From Escherichia phage JP4: a stretch of DNA of 64,000 bases. The position numbers were made by a program, and so were the translations under genes. Shown piece by piece: positions 59,670-63,665 of this stretch; the first letter of the stretch is position 1; each line of letters starts with the position of its first letter. A model generated the notes under the pieces. It did not search any database. It was not told where the DNA came from and saw nothing but the letters and a program-made list of their open reading frames with translations. The stretch lies in sequence record PQ330092. One strand, given 5' to 3'.

Positions 59670-60317
59670 GGTTACACGTCTGGAAGTATAGACGGCTAAA
59701 TCAAAATTTTATTTTGTTTTTCCAATAGTTCCCCTACCGCGTGGGGATAGTTTCCCCGCAGTATCTGTAGTTAGATTTTTCTGAATCTGGAATCATTATC
59801 TTATAAACTGGGGGCAATGTCAACGACCTGGCCGGATATTTTTAAAAATTTTTTCAGTACTGAATTTTGGGCGTAACTATGCACCCGGTGGGCTTGAGTC
59901 TTTCTCGACTTGATGGAACTATTATACAGTACTGGAAAAATAAAGCAATACCCTGGATGAAAAAAGTTTTAATTAATTTGCTTGCCATCCTGGGCCGGAC
60001 TATGGTACTATATTTCAGTACTGAGAAAGTGCGTTTACCTGCTAGGGTGCGGGAGTGTATCCTTTTTTTATATCTTGAATTTTGGGCGTAATTCCGCACC
60101 CTCTGGGGTTTCCGCTTTCTCGCGTCTATGTAGTAATTATACGCTTTTTCAGGATCAAGTCAATACCTAAAAACAAAATAATTGAAAATAATTTAACGCG
60201 TTTAAACGGCCTGTAAAGCCCTGGAATGATTGGAATGGTGCAAATGTATAGCTTATGTGTATTAATGCGTTAGAATGCGTCTGAGGCCGTTTTATGGGGT
60301 GTAGTAGTGATTTGGTT

Positions 60318-60408
60318 GATTCAGTACTGAATAATAGTACTCCTATATAGAAAGATAGTTCCCCTGGATTGATTCAGTACTGAATAATAGTACTCCTATA
60401 TAGAAAGA
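60318..60408. repeat. tandem direct repeat, 2 x 38 bp
   Basis: gattcagtactgaataatagtactcctatatagaaaga at 60318-60355 and 60371-60408. Confidence 0.65.
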
Positions 60409-60439
60409 AAACTATTTTAAAAGTATTTGTAGAAAGTAC

Positions 60440-60467
60440 TTGCACCGTACTGATAAAAGCGTATAAT
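60440..60467 (+). promoter_or_regulatory. early-type promoter with conserved 5' stem-loop
   Basis: aaagtacTTGCAC-16-TATAATgttttacatc, then hairpin agcgggaa-cac-ttcccgct at 60481-60499. Confidence 0.6.
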
Positions 60468-60522
60468 GTTTTACATCGAGAGCGGGAACACTTCCCGCTA
60501 CACATTAAGAGAGATTAAAACG

Positions 60523-60885
60523 ATGGCGACTCAAATCAATAAAATCATGCTTAACCTGGTAAACTTCCGCGAAGAGATGAAAGGTCTTCCGGCTGAAACT
60601 GTAAAAATTCACATTGCAGCTTATCGGGAACTTATTGCAATGTTGCCGCTTAAGCGTGAACAATACGCCGCTACTTTGATGCTTGATTCAATGATCCATA
60701 TAATGATCTCAAATGATTTAACGATGGTTTATCAGTACATGGGCGAAAATTTCGCGGTGTGTAGTAAGCCAGTACCAGGGATGGCAACTACTGAGGAATT
60801 GCACGGTTTAAATTTAAAGCAAGATGCATGGGATAATATGCCTCGTTTCCTGGTATGGGCTGACAGTGGCAAAATTTACAAATAA
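60523..60885 (+). CDS. hypothetical protein
   Basis: ATG 60523 (MATQINKIML..) with agagag SD; track start 60466 lies inside the -10 box. Confidence 0.55.
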   Translation: MATQINKIMLNLVNFREEMKGLPAETVKIHIAAYRELIAMLPLKREQYAATLMLDSMIHIMISNDLTMVYQYMGENFAVCSKPVPGMATTEELHGLNLKQDAWDNMPRFLVWADSGKIYK

Positions 60886-60899
60886 GTTTAATAAAGTAC

Positions 60900-60927
60900 T
60901 TGCAAACTAAGTTTAAAAGCGTATAAT
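60900..60927 (+). promoter_or_regulatory. early-type promoter with conserved 5' stem-loop
   Basis: TTGCAA-16-TATAAT, then hairpin gtggggaa-tag-ttccccac at 60940-60958. Confidence 0.6.
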
Positions 60928-60977
60928 GTTTTACATCAGGTGGGGAATAGTTCCCCACTATATAAGAGGATTAAAAA

Positions 60978-61217
60978 ATGGCTAAATCAAAAATGTTCTT
61001 AGGTCACAAAAACAAAACTCATTGGAATGTAAGCCTTTGGATTAATAACGATGAATCATTATACCGGTTGGCCCAGGACTTTATTAACGATAGCACTAAT
61101 CGCAATGATGCGGCCCGTCATATGATGTTATTTTTAGAACAGACTGGACAAGATAAAACACCGGACGGATTCAAATATAGCACTACTGCGATCCGTGCGG
61201 CGATGGTTGGAATGTAA
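60978..61217 (+). CDS. hypothetical protein
   Basis: 79-aa ORF with agagga SD. Confidence 0.55.
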   Translation: MAKSKMFLGHKNKTHWNVSLWINNDESLYRLAQDFINDSTNRNDAARHMMLFLEQTGQDKTPDGFKYSTTAIRAAMVGM

Positions 61218-61305
61218 TAGAATAGAATTTATTTAAAGTACTATTGCACGCTGATAGTACTTTATAATAGTGTTTTATTCATACACCAACGATAAGGGCA
61301 ACAGC

Positions 61306-61572
61306 ATGAATATTAAGTATTTTGCGACGCGTGAACAAGCTCGGATCGCCGCACGCCAGGACGGGGCAACGTTTAAAGATATGGGCGTACAATCGGAACG
61401 TGGTAAACGTTGGGCCATTGTAAAGCGTAGTACCGCCAGATCATTACAGTACTGGTTAGCGGCCTTAAAAAGTCCCGATAGTGTATCGCGTCGAGTGGTA
61501 GAAATAAAGCTCGACCGAAAGGGCAACCGCGTGACCGTGTACCGTACTAAAAAGATTGCAGTACTTGAATAA
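61306..61572 (+). CDS. hypothetical basic protein
   Basis: ATG 61306 (MNIKYFATREQ..) after aaggg SD; track start 61270 is a GTG. Confidence 0.5.
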   Translation: MNIKYFATREQARIAARQDGATFKDMGVQSERGKRWAIVKRSTARSLQYWLAALKSPDSVSRRVVEIKLDRKGNRVTVYRTKKIAVLE

Positions 61573-61579
61573 AAAGTAC

Positions 61580-61607
61580 TTGCAAACTATGTTTAAAGGC
61601 GTATAAT
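61580..61607 (+). promoter_or_regulatory. early-type promoter with conserved 5' stem-loop
   Basis: TTGCAA-16-TATAAT, then hairpin gcgggaa-ctc-ttcccgc at 61622-61638. Confidence 0.6.
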
Positions 61608-61659
61608 GTTTTACATCGAGAGCGGGAACTCTTCCCGCCTATAACCTGGAGTAATAAAA

Positions 61660-61890
61660 ATGACTAATATGTATATGACTGAAGTTAAAACCGTAAAAGA
61701 TACTACCACGAATAAAACTACTTACTTACAGCGGATCTGTGGTGTATGGCAACGTATCAGCAAATCAAAGTACTTTAAATTAACATCATATGCCAATCGT
61801 TCGGATTCATTCAGTACTGAAATAAAAGGTAATAAAGTACACCAATACGGCACTTATTATTATTATAGCCTGGACGCGATTGTAGTATAA
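61660..61890 (+). CDS. hypothetical protein
   Basis: 76-aa ORF with ggag SD. Confidence 0.55.
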   Translation: MTNMYMTEVKTVKDTTTNKTTYLQRICGVWQRISKSKYFKLTSYANRSDSFSTEIKGNKVHQYGTYYYYSLDAIVV

Positions 61891-62140: not shown

Positions 62141-62168
62141 TTGCAAACTATGTTTAAAGGCGTATAAT
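62141..62168 (+). promoter_or_regulatory. early-type promoter with no ORF before the next promoter
   Basis: TTGCAA-16-TATAAT plus imperfect acggggaa..ttcccgt stem-loop; next promoter 91 nt downstream. Confidence 0.5.
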
Positions 62169-62258
62169 GTTTTACATCAGGACGGGGAACGAAATAAGTA
62201 ACTTCCCGTTAAGTAGCCCAGGAGTAAGGCACACGAAAAACTCCCCTGATAAAATAGT

Positions 62259-62286
62259 TTGACAAATGTTTTTAAAAGCGTATAAT
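62259..62286 (+). promoter_or_regulatory. sigma70-type promoter
   Basis: TTGACA-16-TATAAT, 33 nt upstream of ATG 62319. Confidence 0.6.
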
Positions 62287-62318
62287 ACTTACATCAACTA
62301 CTGAATGAGGGTTACAAA

Positions 62319-62930
62319 ATGAAAACTATCACTACTACTACTTTCGTTATGGATTTTTCTGAATTGAACGCAGAACAAAAAACGTCAGCTATCGAACTGG
62401 TTCGGGAACGTGAAAAAAACTCAAACGACAATTATTTTTCTGAAAGTGAAATTGAATACTATAAAGAAACAGTACTACCGGAATATGGCATTAATGACGC
62501 TGAAATACAATTCAGTGGTTTTTGGTCCCAGGGTGACGGTGCATCAATCAGTACTGACCACGTTGACGCAGTGAAGTTTTTACGCAAGGTAAGAGCATTA
62601 ACTAAGTATCGCTCAATCCGTCACCTGCTGAATGAAGATGATTTGGCGATGAGTGTAAAGCGTTCGCACTCCCACTACTCGCATGAGAATACTGTAAGCG
62701 GGTACATTGAATCGGCTTACACTGATTTAACCGCAAAACAAGAAACGTTAGTTAATGAGCTTGAGGAATTACTCACTGAAACTATTCGTGAATTGTCACG
62801 CAAGTTGTACCGTGATTTAGAGAATGCATATGAGGATCAATTCACTACTGAAAACATTACGGCACTGATTGAGGGTAACGAGTATCAATTCAATGTTATT
62901 GATGGCGTAGTGGAATCAATCGAATATTAA
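62319..62930 (+). CDS. hypothetical acidic protein
   Basis: 203-aa ORF with gaggg SD. Confidence 0.6.
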   Translation: MKTITTTTFVMDFSELNAEQKTSAIELVREREKNSNDNYFSESEIEYYKETVLPEYGINDAEIQFSGFWSQGDGASISTDHVDAVKFLRKVRALTKYRSIRHLLNEDDLAMSVKRSHSHYSHENTVSGYIESAYTDLTAKQETLVNELEELLTETIRELSRKLYRDLENAYEDQFTTENITALIEGNEYQFNVIDGVVESIEY

Positions 62931-62942
62931 TTTAAAAAGTAC

Positions 62943-62970
62943 TTGCAAACTAAGTTTAAAAGCGTATAAT
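62943..62970 (+). promoter_or_regulatory. early-type promoter with conserved 5' stem-loop
   Basis: TTGCAA-16-TATAAT, then hairpin agcgggaa-tag-ttcccgct at 62984-63002. Confidence 0.6.
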
Positions 62971-63022
62971 ACTTTATATCGAGAGCGGGAATAGTTCCCG
63001 CTACTAATGAGGAATACTACAA

Positions 63023-63187
63023 ATGAATACTTTTACCTTCGCTCAATTGAACGCCCTGGATGTATTGTCTGATGCTTTGCGGGATGCAACTGAAAGCGGT
63101 TTATTTGACAATGTTGACATTCACCCTGATGTAATTAATAATTTTTGTGATGCTATCGCAGAAGTACTGGAAGATCTAAAAAAATAA
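63023..63187 (+). CDS. hypothetical 54-aa acidic protein (absent from ORF track)
   Basis: MNTFTFAQLNALDVLSDALRDATESGLFDN..; ATG after gagga SD, directly behind promoter and stem-loop. Confidence 0.5.
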   Translation: MNTFTFAQLNALDVLSDALRDATESGLFDNVDIHPDVINNFCDAIAEVLEDLKK

Positions 63188-63197
63188 TAGAAAGTAC

Positions 63198-63225
63198 TTG
63201 CAATTAGTTTTTAGTACTGTATAAT
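63198..63225 (+). promoter_or_regulatory. early-type promoter with conserved 5' stem-loop
   Basis: TTGCAA-16-TATAAT, then hairpin gggagaa-atgg-ttctccc at 63239-63256. Confidence 0.6.
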
Positions 63226-63275
63226 AGTTTACATAGAGGGGAGAAATGGTTCTCCCTGGTAATGAGGAAAATAAA

Positions 63276-63497
63276 ATGGCAAATATCACTACTCTTTCCC
63301 AACTGGAAGCACTGGTTAAATCTATGCGGGAACATGCCGACAAAATCGGCGTACAAGATCCAGCCGTTTGCTTCTGCGACGAATTGAATGATGATACCCT
63401 GGTAATAGCAGAAGTCCAGGACGTTTCTAACTATTCCTCGCGTTACACTGGCGGCGTAGCAAATAAAGGTGACTTCTGTTTATACCTTACAAAATAA
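63276..63497 (+). CDS. hypothetical protein
   Basis: ATG 63276 (MANITTLSQ..) after gagga SD; track start 63246 lies in the stem-loop. Confidence 0.55.
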   Translation: MANITTLSQLEALVKSMREHADKIGVQDPAVCFCDELNDDTLVIAEVQDVSNYSSRYTGGVANKGDFCLYLTK

Positions 63498-63502
63498 CAA
63501 CG

Positions 63503-63531
63503 CGGGGAGATAATAACTCCCCGTTACTTTT
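63503..63531 (+). terminator. rho-independent terminator
   Basis: Stem cggggag/ctccccg, loop ataataa, then ttactttttc. Confidence 0.6.
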
Positions 63532-63665
63532 TCAGTACTGAATCATTTAATAGACGGATCTCGGCACCCGGTGGGTTAGTGACTGTTTCGTCTTGATGTA
63601 GTAATTATGCCAGTACTGGATGCACTTGTCAACAACTATTTTTCAAATACTTTTTATTAAAATAC

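Follow-up and report, generated by a model that had tools for sequence, protein, structure and literature searches.

The intergenic DNA between positions 59881 and 63640 of the stretch analysed here (64,000 nucleotides of Escherichia phage JP4, record PQ330092, hereafter the window) carries a recurring GC-rich motif, raising the question of whether it is a protein binding site in DNA or part of an RNA. On balance, we read the motif as the invariant core (in transcribed orientation, 5'-CCCAYNGGGUGC-3') of a set of short, multicopy transcription units whose product would be RNA, likeliest acting in trans.

Exact copies of GCACCCGGTGGG lie at 59881-59892, 62032-62043 and 63564-63575, with a variant, GCACCCTCTGGG, at 60096-60107, and AGGGTGCGGRAGTGTATC is found at 60044-60061 and 61980-61997. 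The motifs listed in an earlier note on this DNA are thus present, with small shifts in position (about 62022 becomes 62032 and about 61978 becomes 61980). Allowing up to two mismatches, the 12-mer matches six times in the window, five of them inside the region noted, against 0.58 expected from 100 dinucleotide-preserving shuffles, none of which reaches six; the 18-mer matches twice against 0.01 expected. Both counts are far above chance for this composition. GGGTGC by itself shows no window-wide enrichment (11 matches against 8.2 expected), and the signal is the longer motif and its clustering. The motif is also conserved in related phages, so that neither of the findings the earlier note held would count against it, chance-level counts and absence from relatives, was obtained.

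What had been described as two motifs, "direct" and "inverse", is a single oriented unit that occurs on either strand; the four direct copies lie on the minus strand and had been read from the wrong one. The sequence (a/g)(c/t)cagtactgga reported some 30 nt further on is indeed present, at 59926, 62071 and 63610, but it is no second motif, being the spacer between the -35 and -10 boxes of the minus-strand promoters. Copies that had been placed 40-50 bp upstream of family promoters belong to separate back-to-back or upstream transcription units and do not serve those promoters.

Each unit runs from a sigma-70 promoter through a hairpin, P1, and the invariant core CCCAYNGGGUGC to P2, a second hairpin, rich in G·U pairs, with the "agtgtatc" of the earlier description as its 3' arm. 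The promoter pattern is TTGAC[A/T], 16-18 nt, TAtaAT, usually with a TG extended -10 (33 of 52 units). The predicted RNA opens with 3-5 nt, followed by P1 (3-5 bp, with a purine- or A-rich loop of 6-8 nt), a linker of 3-5 nt and the core, which occupies +20 to +33 of the predicted transcript. The features in the window are as follows, with modules scored by the covariance model R1 and promoters, out of 12, by promoter scans.

59861-59914, minus strand: RNA module of unit A (53.9 bits, E=2.4e-9); P1 59910-59897 (AGUC/GACU), core CCCACCGGGUGC 59892-59881, P2 59886-59869
59921-59948, minus strand: promoter of unit A, TTGCTT, 16-nt spacer with CCAGTACTG, TATAAT (9/12), its -10 ending 28 nt before the core
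59982-60070, plus strand: degenerate partner of unit B, from the promoter/terminator scan and an 18-mer match; weak promoter 59982-60011 (TTGCCA, 18-nt spacer, TACTAT, with TG), P2 hairpin AGGGUGCGGGAGUGUAUCCU 60044-60063, then a seven-T run
60076-60129, minus strand: RNA module of unit B (51 bits, E=1.1e-8); P1 60124-60113 (CGC/GCG), core CCCAGAGGGUGC 60107-60096, P2 60101-60084
60136-60163, minus strand: promoter of unit B, TTGACT, 16-nt spacer, TATAAT (11/12)
61921-61949, plus strand: promoter of unit C, TTGACT, 17-nt spacer, CATAAT, TG extended -10
61954-62006, plus strand: RNA module of unit C (50.3 bits, E=1.5e-8); P1 61958-61971 (UGGC/GCCG), core CCCAUAGGGUGC 61975-61986, P2 61981-61998
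62012-62054, minus strand: RNA module of unit D, a variant without P1 (24.1 bits, E=0.012); core CCCACCGGGUGC 62043-62032, P2 62037-62020
62065-62093, minus strand: promoter of unit D, TTGACA, 17-nt spacer, TATAAT, with TG (12/12); an A9 UP-like tract lies upstream, at 62096-62104
63493-63523, minus strand: bidirectional intrinsic terminator 3' of unit E, also given as 63503-63523, from the promoter/terminator scan and folding; 7-pair stem with 6 G-C, then CGUUGUUAU
63544-63597, minus strand: RNA module of unit E (53.3 bits, E=3.3e-9); P1 63592-63581 (GAC/GUC), core CCCACCGGGUGC 63575-63564, P2 63569-63552
63604-63632, minus strand: promoter of unit E, TTGACA, 17-nt spacer, CATAAT, with TG (11/12)

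The degenerate partner of unit B has lost the CCCA half of the core and is not detected by R1 at E<=1. Orthologues of unit D in WPEC3 and EJP2 retain a GAC/GUC P1, and the unit C subtype is kept in RaK2, GAP32, CBB, Munch and Hallingskeid. In the promoter scan, a promoter that scores 9-12 of 12 and ends 21-29 nt before the core precedes 50 of 52 units; shuffled upstream sequences score 7-9. Such fixed spacing would, however, be expected of any repeated cassette, whatever its function. The hexamers are conserved while the spacers vary.

The two hairpins point to an RNA. About 35 of 45 distinct units carry P1, always at the same position and with no fewer than 15 stem sequences among them (about 10 units have none); its hairpin score is 9.16 against 6.85 +/- 0.46 in shuffles. 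In the model alignment all four P1 pairs show two-sided changes (92 cells) and 91.5% of cells are paired; in an independent IMG/VR set 90.8% are paired, and none of 500 shuffles matches either value. Phage 121Q has exchanged the orthologous P1 for a different hairpin, AUUG/CAAU. P2 is paired in 90% of cells, against 30-57% in shifted registers, and 155 of 343 cells (45%) are G·U, which on the other strand would be C·A mismatches; the P2 helix therefore exists only on the promoter-sense strand. Its changes are one-sided only, because its 5' arm is invariant, and it is weak (mean -3.9 kcal/mol), and about one unit in three has one pair broken. Two pairings are predicted for the GGGU(GC) half of the core, backwards with CCC as a tri-loop mini-hairpin or forwards with a YRYRYYY tract as the 7-bp P2. 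The mini-hairpin is paired in 99.5% of cells, with one compensatory CCU/AGG variant, and RNAalifold on the model alignment prefers it over P2. The earlier suggestion of structured RNA elements is supported by the covariation of P1 and the strand-specific P2 downstream of a promoter. The alternative offered with it, a regulator binding site in DNA, is not supported: the core is not a dyad and sits at +20 to +33 of the predicted transcript, and the helices associated with it form on a single strand.

The covariance model finds 59 units in six genomes (the window, CRJP21, CBB, GAP32, RaK2 and Munch) from five jumbo-phage lineages, named here as Asteriusvirus, RaK2, GAP32/CBB and Munch. The units are confined, in both orientations, to the direct terminal repeat of about 21 kb, with about 10 units per repeat and two repeats per genome. 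Every unit in CBB lies within the annotated 22,456-bp repeat, and the verified left terminus of fEgEco12 maps to window position 58792. No unit is found by the model in 109 kb of adjacent non-repeat DNA (window 1-59860 plus CRJP21 24.9-74.9 kb), even though the window has many sigma-70 promoters ahead of the repeat. Nearby, at 59538-59697, are iteron-like 8-bp repeats. Two-thirds of the units are oriented with the genes and one-third against, and the left-most units face the DNA end. Modules have been swapped between orthologues, with homology breaking at cassette edges; in 121Q, WPEC3 and EJP2, P1 modules are exchanged and the upstream genes replaced at the cassette edge.

The predicted transcripts differ at their 3' ends. 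A hairpin and U-run follow six of seven minus-strand stand-alone units (unit E and five in relatives), placing a terminator within about 60 nt and giving predicted RNAs of about 100 nt; that of unit E would end at the 63493-63523 terminator, at about 105 nt. Three units have P2 followed by a U-run. Most copies, the convergent pairs among them, have no terminator of their own, and plus-strand units have no hairpin with U-run within 220 nt and would read into the next gene. The units appear to be non-coding: the sole long ORF across them, 81 amino acids at 59854-60099, is frameshifted in CRJP21 (97% identical). ARAGORN finds no tRNA or tmRNA genes in the window, and Rfam 15 returns nothing across it at gathering thresholds; at E<=5, the 59700-63700 interval yields two chance-level matches, mir-653 and SAM-II (18.7 bits), neither on a unit.

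The best reading of these units is that they specify immediate-early small non-coding RNAs or leader RNAs, which host RNA polymerase would make once the terminal repeat enters the cell. Stable products of about 55-110 nt would end at P2 and its U-run, at a bidirectional terminator, or by running on into the next gene or a convergent partner. The functional product would be RNA rather than DNA, probably acting in trans at high dosage (about 10 copies per repeat, two repeats), with the invariant core/P2 module bound by a conserved factor of the host or the phage; all start sites, 3' ends and abundances given here are predicted. There is a precedent in PA5oct, a distant relative of the RaK2-like clade, where two ncRNAs, ncRNA001 and ncRNA002, are highly transcribed (2-5% of phage reads) from ORF-free regions of the terminal repeat (PMC7318152). 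These differ from our units in being 236-451 nt long, occurring once each and having no known promoter (PMC7318152); ncRNA001 contains no core motif, and no homology to the units was found. The units also resemble bacterial and phage genes for small regulatory RNAs, multicopy "sibling" sRNAs and Hfq-type sRNAs included: they have a promoter of their own, a hairpin at the 5' end, an internal segment that is strongly conserved and several paralogues, and stand-alone units on the minus strand add an A/U-rich stretch and an intrinsic terminator ending in a U-tail. Unlike such genes, they show no target complementarity, either elsewhere in about 140 kb of phage DNA (the window and CRJP21 1-75 kb) or in E. 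coli rRNA (rrnB). Two variable positions split their invariant segment, which is predicted to lie in a helix and not to form a free seed; most copies have no terminator of their own, and there is no Rfam family.

Plus-strand units that read into the next gene fit a cis-acting leader as well as a trans-acting RNA. A module at the start of a transcript might alter its own RNA polymerase or transcript, by antitermination of the HK022 put or lambda nut type or by stabilisation or processing, so that transcription from unit promoters would read through early-region terminators at which ordinary gene-promoter transcripts stop. We regard this as unlikely. The module does keep a fixed position next to the promoter, the co-directional two-thirds of units have no terminator before the next gene, each gene-directed unit lies upstream of a gene with its own promoter, and the region is full of terminators. 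As in lambda boxA/boxB and HK022 putL/putR, early transcripts would begin with a short two-hairpin RNA; like nutL and nutR, the units face both ways, the A-rich loop of P1 bears a loose resemblance to boxB, and two nearly isoenergetic helices sharing GGG could behave as a switch. However, one-third of units oppose the genes, most stand-alone ones running into a hairpin and U-run with no gene beyond, the left-most aim at the DNA end, and P2 with a U-run in three units is a terminator, not an antiterminator. A lambda-type boxA (CGCTCTTA or GCTCTTT) beside the hairpin and the RfaH ops element GGCGGTAG on the non-template strand are each found in none of 52 units. The P1 loops, at 6-8 nt, are not GNRA-like pentaloops, and there is no sequence similarity to nut or put.

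A function at the level of DNA is improbable. The units would then be mobile promoter cassettes like the PeSLs (promoter-early stem-loops) of T4-type phages (Arbiol et al. 2010, PMC2839356; Comeau et al. 2014, PMC4122927), and the 12-mer would be bound, as duplex or unwound DNA, by a phage protein at work in the terminal repeat, such as a recombinase, a nuclease, a repressor or a factor for replication or packaging. Like PeSLs, the units are repeated intergenic cassettes amid small ORFan genes, exchanged among related phages, with a near-consensus sigma-70 early promoter in those 50 of 52 units and an AT-rich upstream tract (A-tracts such as A9). In relatives, many plus-strand units also start inside a G/C-stem terminator hairpin that contains their -35 box (GGGaTTGACtccgGTCAgtCCC TTTG..TATTAT), as in T4-type PeSLs (PMC2839356); CRJ_13197p, CRJ_16472p, CBB_6551p and RaK2_18629p, among others, have such a hairpin, and all five window units lack it. 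Restriction to the terminal repeat in both orientations and breaks of homology at cassette edges also speak for this reading, the exchanged P1 modules and replaced upstream genes being at most indirect signs of recombination, and the absolute invariance of 10 bases would suit protein recognition. Against this, the covariation of P1 points to a single-stranded fold, P2 with its G·U pairs exists on one strand only, and the core has no dyad and keeps its distance from the transcription start and not, as an operator would, from the -35 or -10 box; the promoter hexamers, too, are conserved over varying spacers. Moreover, a PeSL is a promoter and terminator with no conserved transcribed module, whereas P1, core and P2 downstream of the start define our units, which also occur where there is no gene to serve, face either way and are confined to the terminal repeat.

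Some units form convergent pairs that fold into hairpins of about 110 nt, in keeping with the earlier proposal of long-range stems. Two such pairs occur in the window: units C and D, with core starts 68 nt apart (z -4.5 and -4.6), and unit B with the 60044 copy (z -4.9 and -4.1); those in CBB reach z -6.1 to -7.5. That the pair is the functional entity, two strong promoters about 115 bp apart transcribing towards each other over a palindrome to serve as insulator or roadblock, or yielding double-stranded RNA or an RNase III substrate, with single units as decayed halves, seems to us very improbable. Core-to-core spacing is held at 67-68 nt in Asteriusvirus, CBB and GAP32, and both strands fold to P1, a central 15-17 bp stem and anti-P1 (z down to -7.5), but singles outnumber pairs about 2:1 in every genome and retain promoter, P1, core and P2 under the same constraints. 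The pairs recall the RNase III hairpins of the T7 early region in being imperfect hairpins, about 100 nt long, in the gaps between early genes, and differ in that each arm has its own inward-facing promoter and the central stem is perfect over 12-17 bp and GC-rich. We likewise give very little credence to units as origins, at which a G-rich promoter-proximal transcript would form a persistent R-loop over AT-rich DNA and prime replication as at T4 oriF/oriG, several such units starting it from both ends: these phages have a T4-like replisome (PMC5259590), AT-rich DNA follows the GGGUGCGGAG segment, both orientations occur and iteron-like repeats are close by, but P1 covariation and the invariant CCCA are left unexplained, there is a single short G cluster, and stand-alone units on the minus strand meet a terminator within about 60 nt.

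A bolder reading, which we consider rather unlikely, is that RaK2-like terminal repeats carry a dosage-amplified immediate-early RNA battery whose invariant core/P2 module would either capture a conserved host factor, as a decoy for a defence or RNA-metabolism protein, or reprogramme host RNA polymerase without a protein cofactor, like put. If so, either action would make a new class of phage takeover RNA, common to phages of Escherichia, Klebsiella, Salmonella, Cronobacter, Pectobacterium and Erwinia. The RNA family, short, structured, with its own strong host-type promoter and present only in the RaK2/121Q-like long terminal repeat, appears to be previously undescribed, and we found no description of it in the literature. 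These 350-kb jumbo phages are therapy candidates whose first minutes of infection are unstudied and whose terminal repeats carry no annotation beyond "hypothetical proteins". If the DNA that enters the cell first holds a conserved, promoter-driven RNA module in many copies, host takeover or anti-defence would gain a new player, and several "intergenic" stretches of these genomes, along with some of their annotated small ORFs, would be RNA genes. The analysis supplies a defined 55-nt molecule and a covariance model for annotation.

The core was also compared with the Chi site: GCACCCGGTGGG / CCCACCGGGTGC differs from Chi (GCTGGTGG) at at least two positions, and this candidate was rejected. True Chi sites are only incidental, adjoining two CRJP21 units.

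The GC-rich motif that an earlier note had reported from the sequence alone does recur: exact copies of GCACCCGGTGGG lie at 59881, 62032 and 63564, a related copy, GCACCCTCTGGG, lies at 60096, and the inverse form, AGGGTGCGGRAGTGTATC, is found at 60044 and 61980. Matches to the direct motif at up to two mismatches number six compared with 0.58 expected, and matches to the inverse form two compared with 0.01, while the hexamer GGGTGC by itself is not enriched. The earlier note had listed the second form as an inverse of the first. As the inverse copies have plus-strand promoters and the direct copies minus-strand promoters, they are a single oriented unit that can lie on either strand, not two motifs. 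Each of the four minus-strand promoters, three of them consensus or near-consensus and one weaker, is 21-28 nt upstream of one direct copy, and (a/g)(c/t)cagtactgga, previously read as a second box, is instead their -35/-10 spacer, its TG forming an extended -10.

Promoters of the motif units in the window
62093..62065, minus strand, sigma-70 promoter from the promoter scan (TTGACA, spacer 17, TATAAT)
63632..63604, minus strand, sigma-70 promoter from the promoter scan (TTGACA, spacer 17, CATAAT)
60163..60136, minus strand, sigma-70 promoter from the promoter scan (TTGACT, spacer 16, TATAAT)
59948..59921, minus strand, weaker promoter (TTGCTT, 16 nt, TATAAT)
61921-61949, plus strand, promoter of the inverse copy at 61980
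59982-60011, plus strand, promoter of the inverse copy at 60044

Along the strand from which it would be transcribed, a unit consists, 5' to 3', of the promoter, about 4 nt, a first hairpin (P1), a linker of 3-5 nt (CUAA, CUAG or GUAG), the core CCCAYNGGGUGC and RNNNN-YRYRYYY, with a second hairpin, P2, formed by GGGUGCR, 4 nt and YRYRYYY. The promoter scores 9-12 of 12 in 50 of 52 units, ending 21-29 nt ahead of the core, compared with 7-9 for shuffled upstream sequence, and a TG extension is present in 33 of the 52.

The earlier suggestion of structured RNA elements is supported, with P1 covarying and P2 strand-specific. Of 45 distinct units, about 35 have P1 in an unbiased hairpin search, as a 3-5 bp stem with a purine-rich loop of 6-8 nt, ending 3-5 nt ahead of the core; its mean hairpin score is 9.16, compared with 6.85 +/- 0.46 in shuffles. 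At least 15 different stems occur, among them UGGC/GCCG, GAC/GUC, CGC/GCG, AGUC/GACU, UGAG/CUCA, GACG/CGUC, GCCA/UGGC, AGCA/UGCU, ACCG/CGGU, GGAA/UUCC, GGAG/CUCC and ACCAC/GUGGU. On the alignment to R1, a covariance model built from 16 ungapped units, all four P1 pairs show two-sided changes (92 cells), covariation that none of 500 shuffles matched, and 91.5% of cells are paired compared with 32-51% in shifted registers. An independent set of 36 distinct units from IMG/VR contigs has 90.8% of P1 cells paired (0/500 shuffles). Both alignments are model-fitted and the seed was picked for the presence of P1, so that these figures are inflated; the unbiased hairpin scan and the comparison of orthologues are free of this bias. 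In phage 121Q, the orthologous plus-strand unit keeps promoter, core and P2 and has P1 swapped for AUUG aaacgaa CAAU, and a GAC/GUC P1, lost from the window copy, is present in the minus-strand partner in WPEC3 and EJP2.

P2 is paired in 90% of cells compared with 30-57% in shifted registers. Its changes are all one-sided (G·U to G-C, U-A to U·G) over an invariant 5' arm, which is consistent with pairing and is not compensatory proof. Because P2 is so rich in G·U (155 of 343 cells), neither the complementary strand nor a cruciform can adopt it, and the strand that can is the promoter strand. The core GGGU can instead pair with the preceding R-CCC around a three-base AYN loop; this mini-hairpin has 99.5% of its cells paired and is compensatory (CCU...AGG) in one unit of phage CBB. 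RNAalifold favours this mini-hairpin over P2; the two are nearly isoenergetic (-3.75 vs -3.9 kcal/mol), although P2 has the greater stability in 32 of 49 units. Either may be the functional fold, or both may be, one after the other. A candidate outer helix closing P2, between the linker CUA and a downstream UAG, was rejected (51% of cells paired, fewer than in shuffles).

The search in related phages suggested in the earlier note recovered units by both BLAST and R1. With one convergent pair as BLAST query, the promoter-to-P2 segment was found in the Klebsiella phages RaK2, K64-1 and Muenster, Cronobacter phage GAP32, Pectobacterium phage CBB, the Salmonella phages Munch, 7t3 and SE_PL, and Erwinia phage Hallingskeid, and several matches fall under annotated terminal-repeat features. 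R1 identified 59 units, about two-thirds of them in gene-sense orientation.

Units identified by R1
Window, 5
CRJP21, 10
CBB, 12
GAP32, 13
RaK2, 9
Munch, 10

CRJP21 has six further plus-strand units past the end of the window, at 3189, 9175, 10841, 13197, 16472 and 18725. R1 found no unit in window 1-59860, in CRJP21 24.9-74.9 kb or in the 13.7 kb after the annotated 22,456-bp repeat of CBB, within which all CBB units (986-20930) lie. In a pattern scan of the whole IMG/VR collection, matches in the complete RaK2, 121Q, GAP32 and CBB genomes were confined to one or two short stretches each; several other matches (L009, L017-L019, L021, L027), at places where R1 gave no support, were taken as chance. 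Sigma-70 promoters are frequent in window 0-40 kb, where R1 units are absent. This confinement to short stretches, with units absent outside the repeat, indicates a family specific to the terminal repeat and not merely linked to early promoters.

Window 59700-63700 shares 97-98% identity with the Asteriusvirus Escherichia jumbo phages CRJP21, EC.P1, fEgEco12 and E9.1 and 88-96% with 121Q, PBECO4, G17 and phAPEC6. The fEgEco12 direct terminal repeat (DTR) is 20,993 bp, defined by PhageTerm and confirmed by restriction digests, and its record begins at the physical left end (PMC13070987). As base 1 aligns with window 58792, the window spans the junction of unique DNA and terminal repeat, placing the units 1.1-4.8 kb inward of the DTR left end; window 1-58791 is, on this alignment, unique DNA ahead of the right-hand repeat copy. 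The genome papers PMC5259590 and PMC13070987 report RpoD-like promoters as well as terminators from the repeats of these phages, and neither mentions an RNA element.

The outer part of the repeat has further features. Window 58792-60450 is without a conserved ORF. The first 1.6 kb is ORF-free and contains, at 59538-59697 and thus some 750-900 bp inward of the physical left end, about 20 tandem 8-bp units (GGATGGCT, AGACGGCT, AAACGGCT, GGACGGCT), an iteron-like array that could bind an origin or packaging protein. An extra minus-strand promoter at 59795-59823 (TTGACA, 17 nt, GATAAT) is aimed at the DNA end; past it lie overlapping GGGGAA...UCCCC and UCCCC...GGGGA hairpins (59725-59765), of the same type as early-mRNA 5' hairpins, with no gene beyond. 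An exact 40-nt direct duplication, TTGATTCAGTACTGAATAATAGTACTCCTATATAGAAAGA, lies at 60316-60355 and 60369-60408, 53 bp apart, and homology to several relatives breaks there (query 614-677). True Chi sites (GCTGGTGG) occur in the repeat at window ~59380 and, in CRJP21, directly past the units at 13197 and 18725; the window has three in plus orientation and four in minus.

No terminator lies within 220 nt of the plus-strand units, which would read on into the next gene even though that gene has a promoter of its own. For six of the seven stand-alone minus-strand units, a hairpin and U-run comes within about 60 nt; it is the upstream gene's bidirectional terminator, and the predicted RNAs are about 95-110 nt.

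Stand-alone units with a predicted terminator
Window unit E, minus strand, terminator at 63503-63523
RaK2 14859 and 21927, minus strand, hairpin and U-run
Munch 3333 and 12026, minus strand, hairpin and U-run
CBB 10245, minus strand, hairpin and U-run

In the 60044 copy and two Mimasvirus units, five to seven U come directly after P2, and the RNA would be about 55 nt. A compact overlap, aaaGGGaTTGACtccgGTCAgtCCCTTTGcTATTAT, in which the upstream gene's terminator hairpin holds the -35 box of the next promoter and the U-tract serves as promoter spacer, is seen in CRJP21 at ~9120-9150, ~13150-13180, ~16420-16450 and ~18680-18710 and at CBB, GAP32, RaK2 and Munch units.

Units also form convergent pairs, in which 67-68 nt separate the two core starts; such pairs occur in the window (61975/62043 and ~60040/60107), CBB (1008/1076, 3818/3886, 20840/20908) and GAP32. 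The earlier proposal that pairs could form long-range stems is borne out: they fold on either strand into P1, anti-P1 and, between these, a 12-17 bp stem in which the core pairs with the partner's anti-core, with z from -4.1 to -7.5 (-4.5/-4.6 and -4.9/-4.1 for the window pairs, -6.1/-7.5 in CBB). Short 'hypothetical protein' CDSs annotated over a convergent pair in 121Q (64-249; e.g., gene 270) and WPEC3 are probably not genes.

The best-supported reading is that the units are predicted immediate-early structured RNAs made by host RNA polymerase, either stand-alone small RNAs or 5' leaders. We favour a trans-acting, dosage-dependent RNA, whose invariant core and P2 would bind a conserved factor, because some units have no gene to serve, units face both ways and some even face the DNA end, those standing alone on the minus strand stop at terminators, three copies are complete predicted 55-nt genes and copy number is high. 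For the plus-strand units, action in cis as a leader is a strong competing explanation. The units may act in the manner of put or nut, although they lack boxA and ops; Chi is incidental. Roles at the DNA level, such as a PeSL-like recombination cassette, an R-loop origin or a protein-binding site (the regulator sites of the earlier note), are less likely given P1 covariation and the strand specificity of P2. Mimicry of or complementarity to E. coli 16S, 23S and 5S rRNA (three two-mismatch matches compared with 5.55 expected), a CsrA sponge (P2-loop GGA in just 25 of 52 units, not a defining feature) and a coding role (an 81-aa ORF, not conserved) were rejected. No target or partner of the RNAs was found.

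Rfam returned no family for the units at gathering thresholds or permissive E-values, and a tRNA/tmRNA search found none. Likenesses to GGGUGCGG of RNase P RNA and to CACCC/GGGUG, the anticodon stem of tRNA-Thr, are too short to be meaningful. In the literature, we found neither a description of the element nor a transcriptome of RaK2-like, 121Q-like or GAP32-like phages. The nearest described elements are the PeSL cassettes of T4-type phages, which share the composite promoter-terminator and shuffling but lack the transcribed module of the jumbo-phage units. The terminal repeat of phage PA5oct likewise encodes abundant ncRNAs, but these have no sequence similarity to the units, and the core motif is absent from ncRNA001. 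We file the family with phage small non-coding RNAs or promoter cassettes.

Two other elements recur. Copies of the palindrome AGTACT exceed expectation more than 10-fold across the genome (the 64-kb window has 233 and CRJP21 24.9-74.9 kb has 156 vs 13.6 +/- 3.6 expected). They lie within genes as well as promoters, and the palindrome could serve as an operator, as a modification site or as some other signal used genome-wide. In promoters, AAAGTACTTGC overlaps the -35 box, CCAGTACTGG sits in spacers, and TCAGTACTGA is concentrated at window 56-64 kb (13 of 16 copies). The 'family promoters' of the earlier note are 80-nt cassettes comprising AAAGTACTTGCAA, 16 nt, TATAAT, about 8 nt and a GC-rich 5' hairpin (GCGGGAA...UUCCCGC).

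Family-promoter cassettes in the window
60430-60511
60890-60971
61570-61651
62131-62212
62933-63014
63188-63269
63653-63702

Homology with relatives breaks at these cassettes (~60883-60895 and 62999-63013) in a PeSL-like manner.
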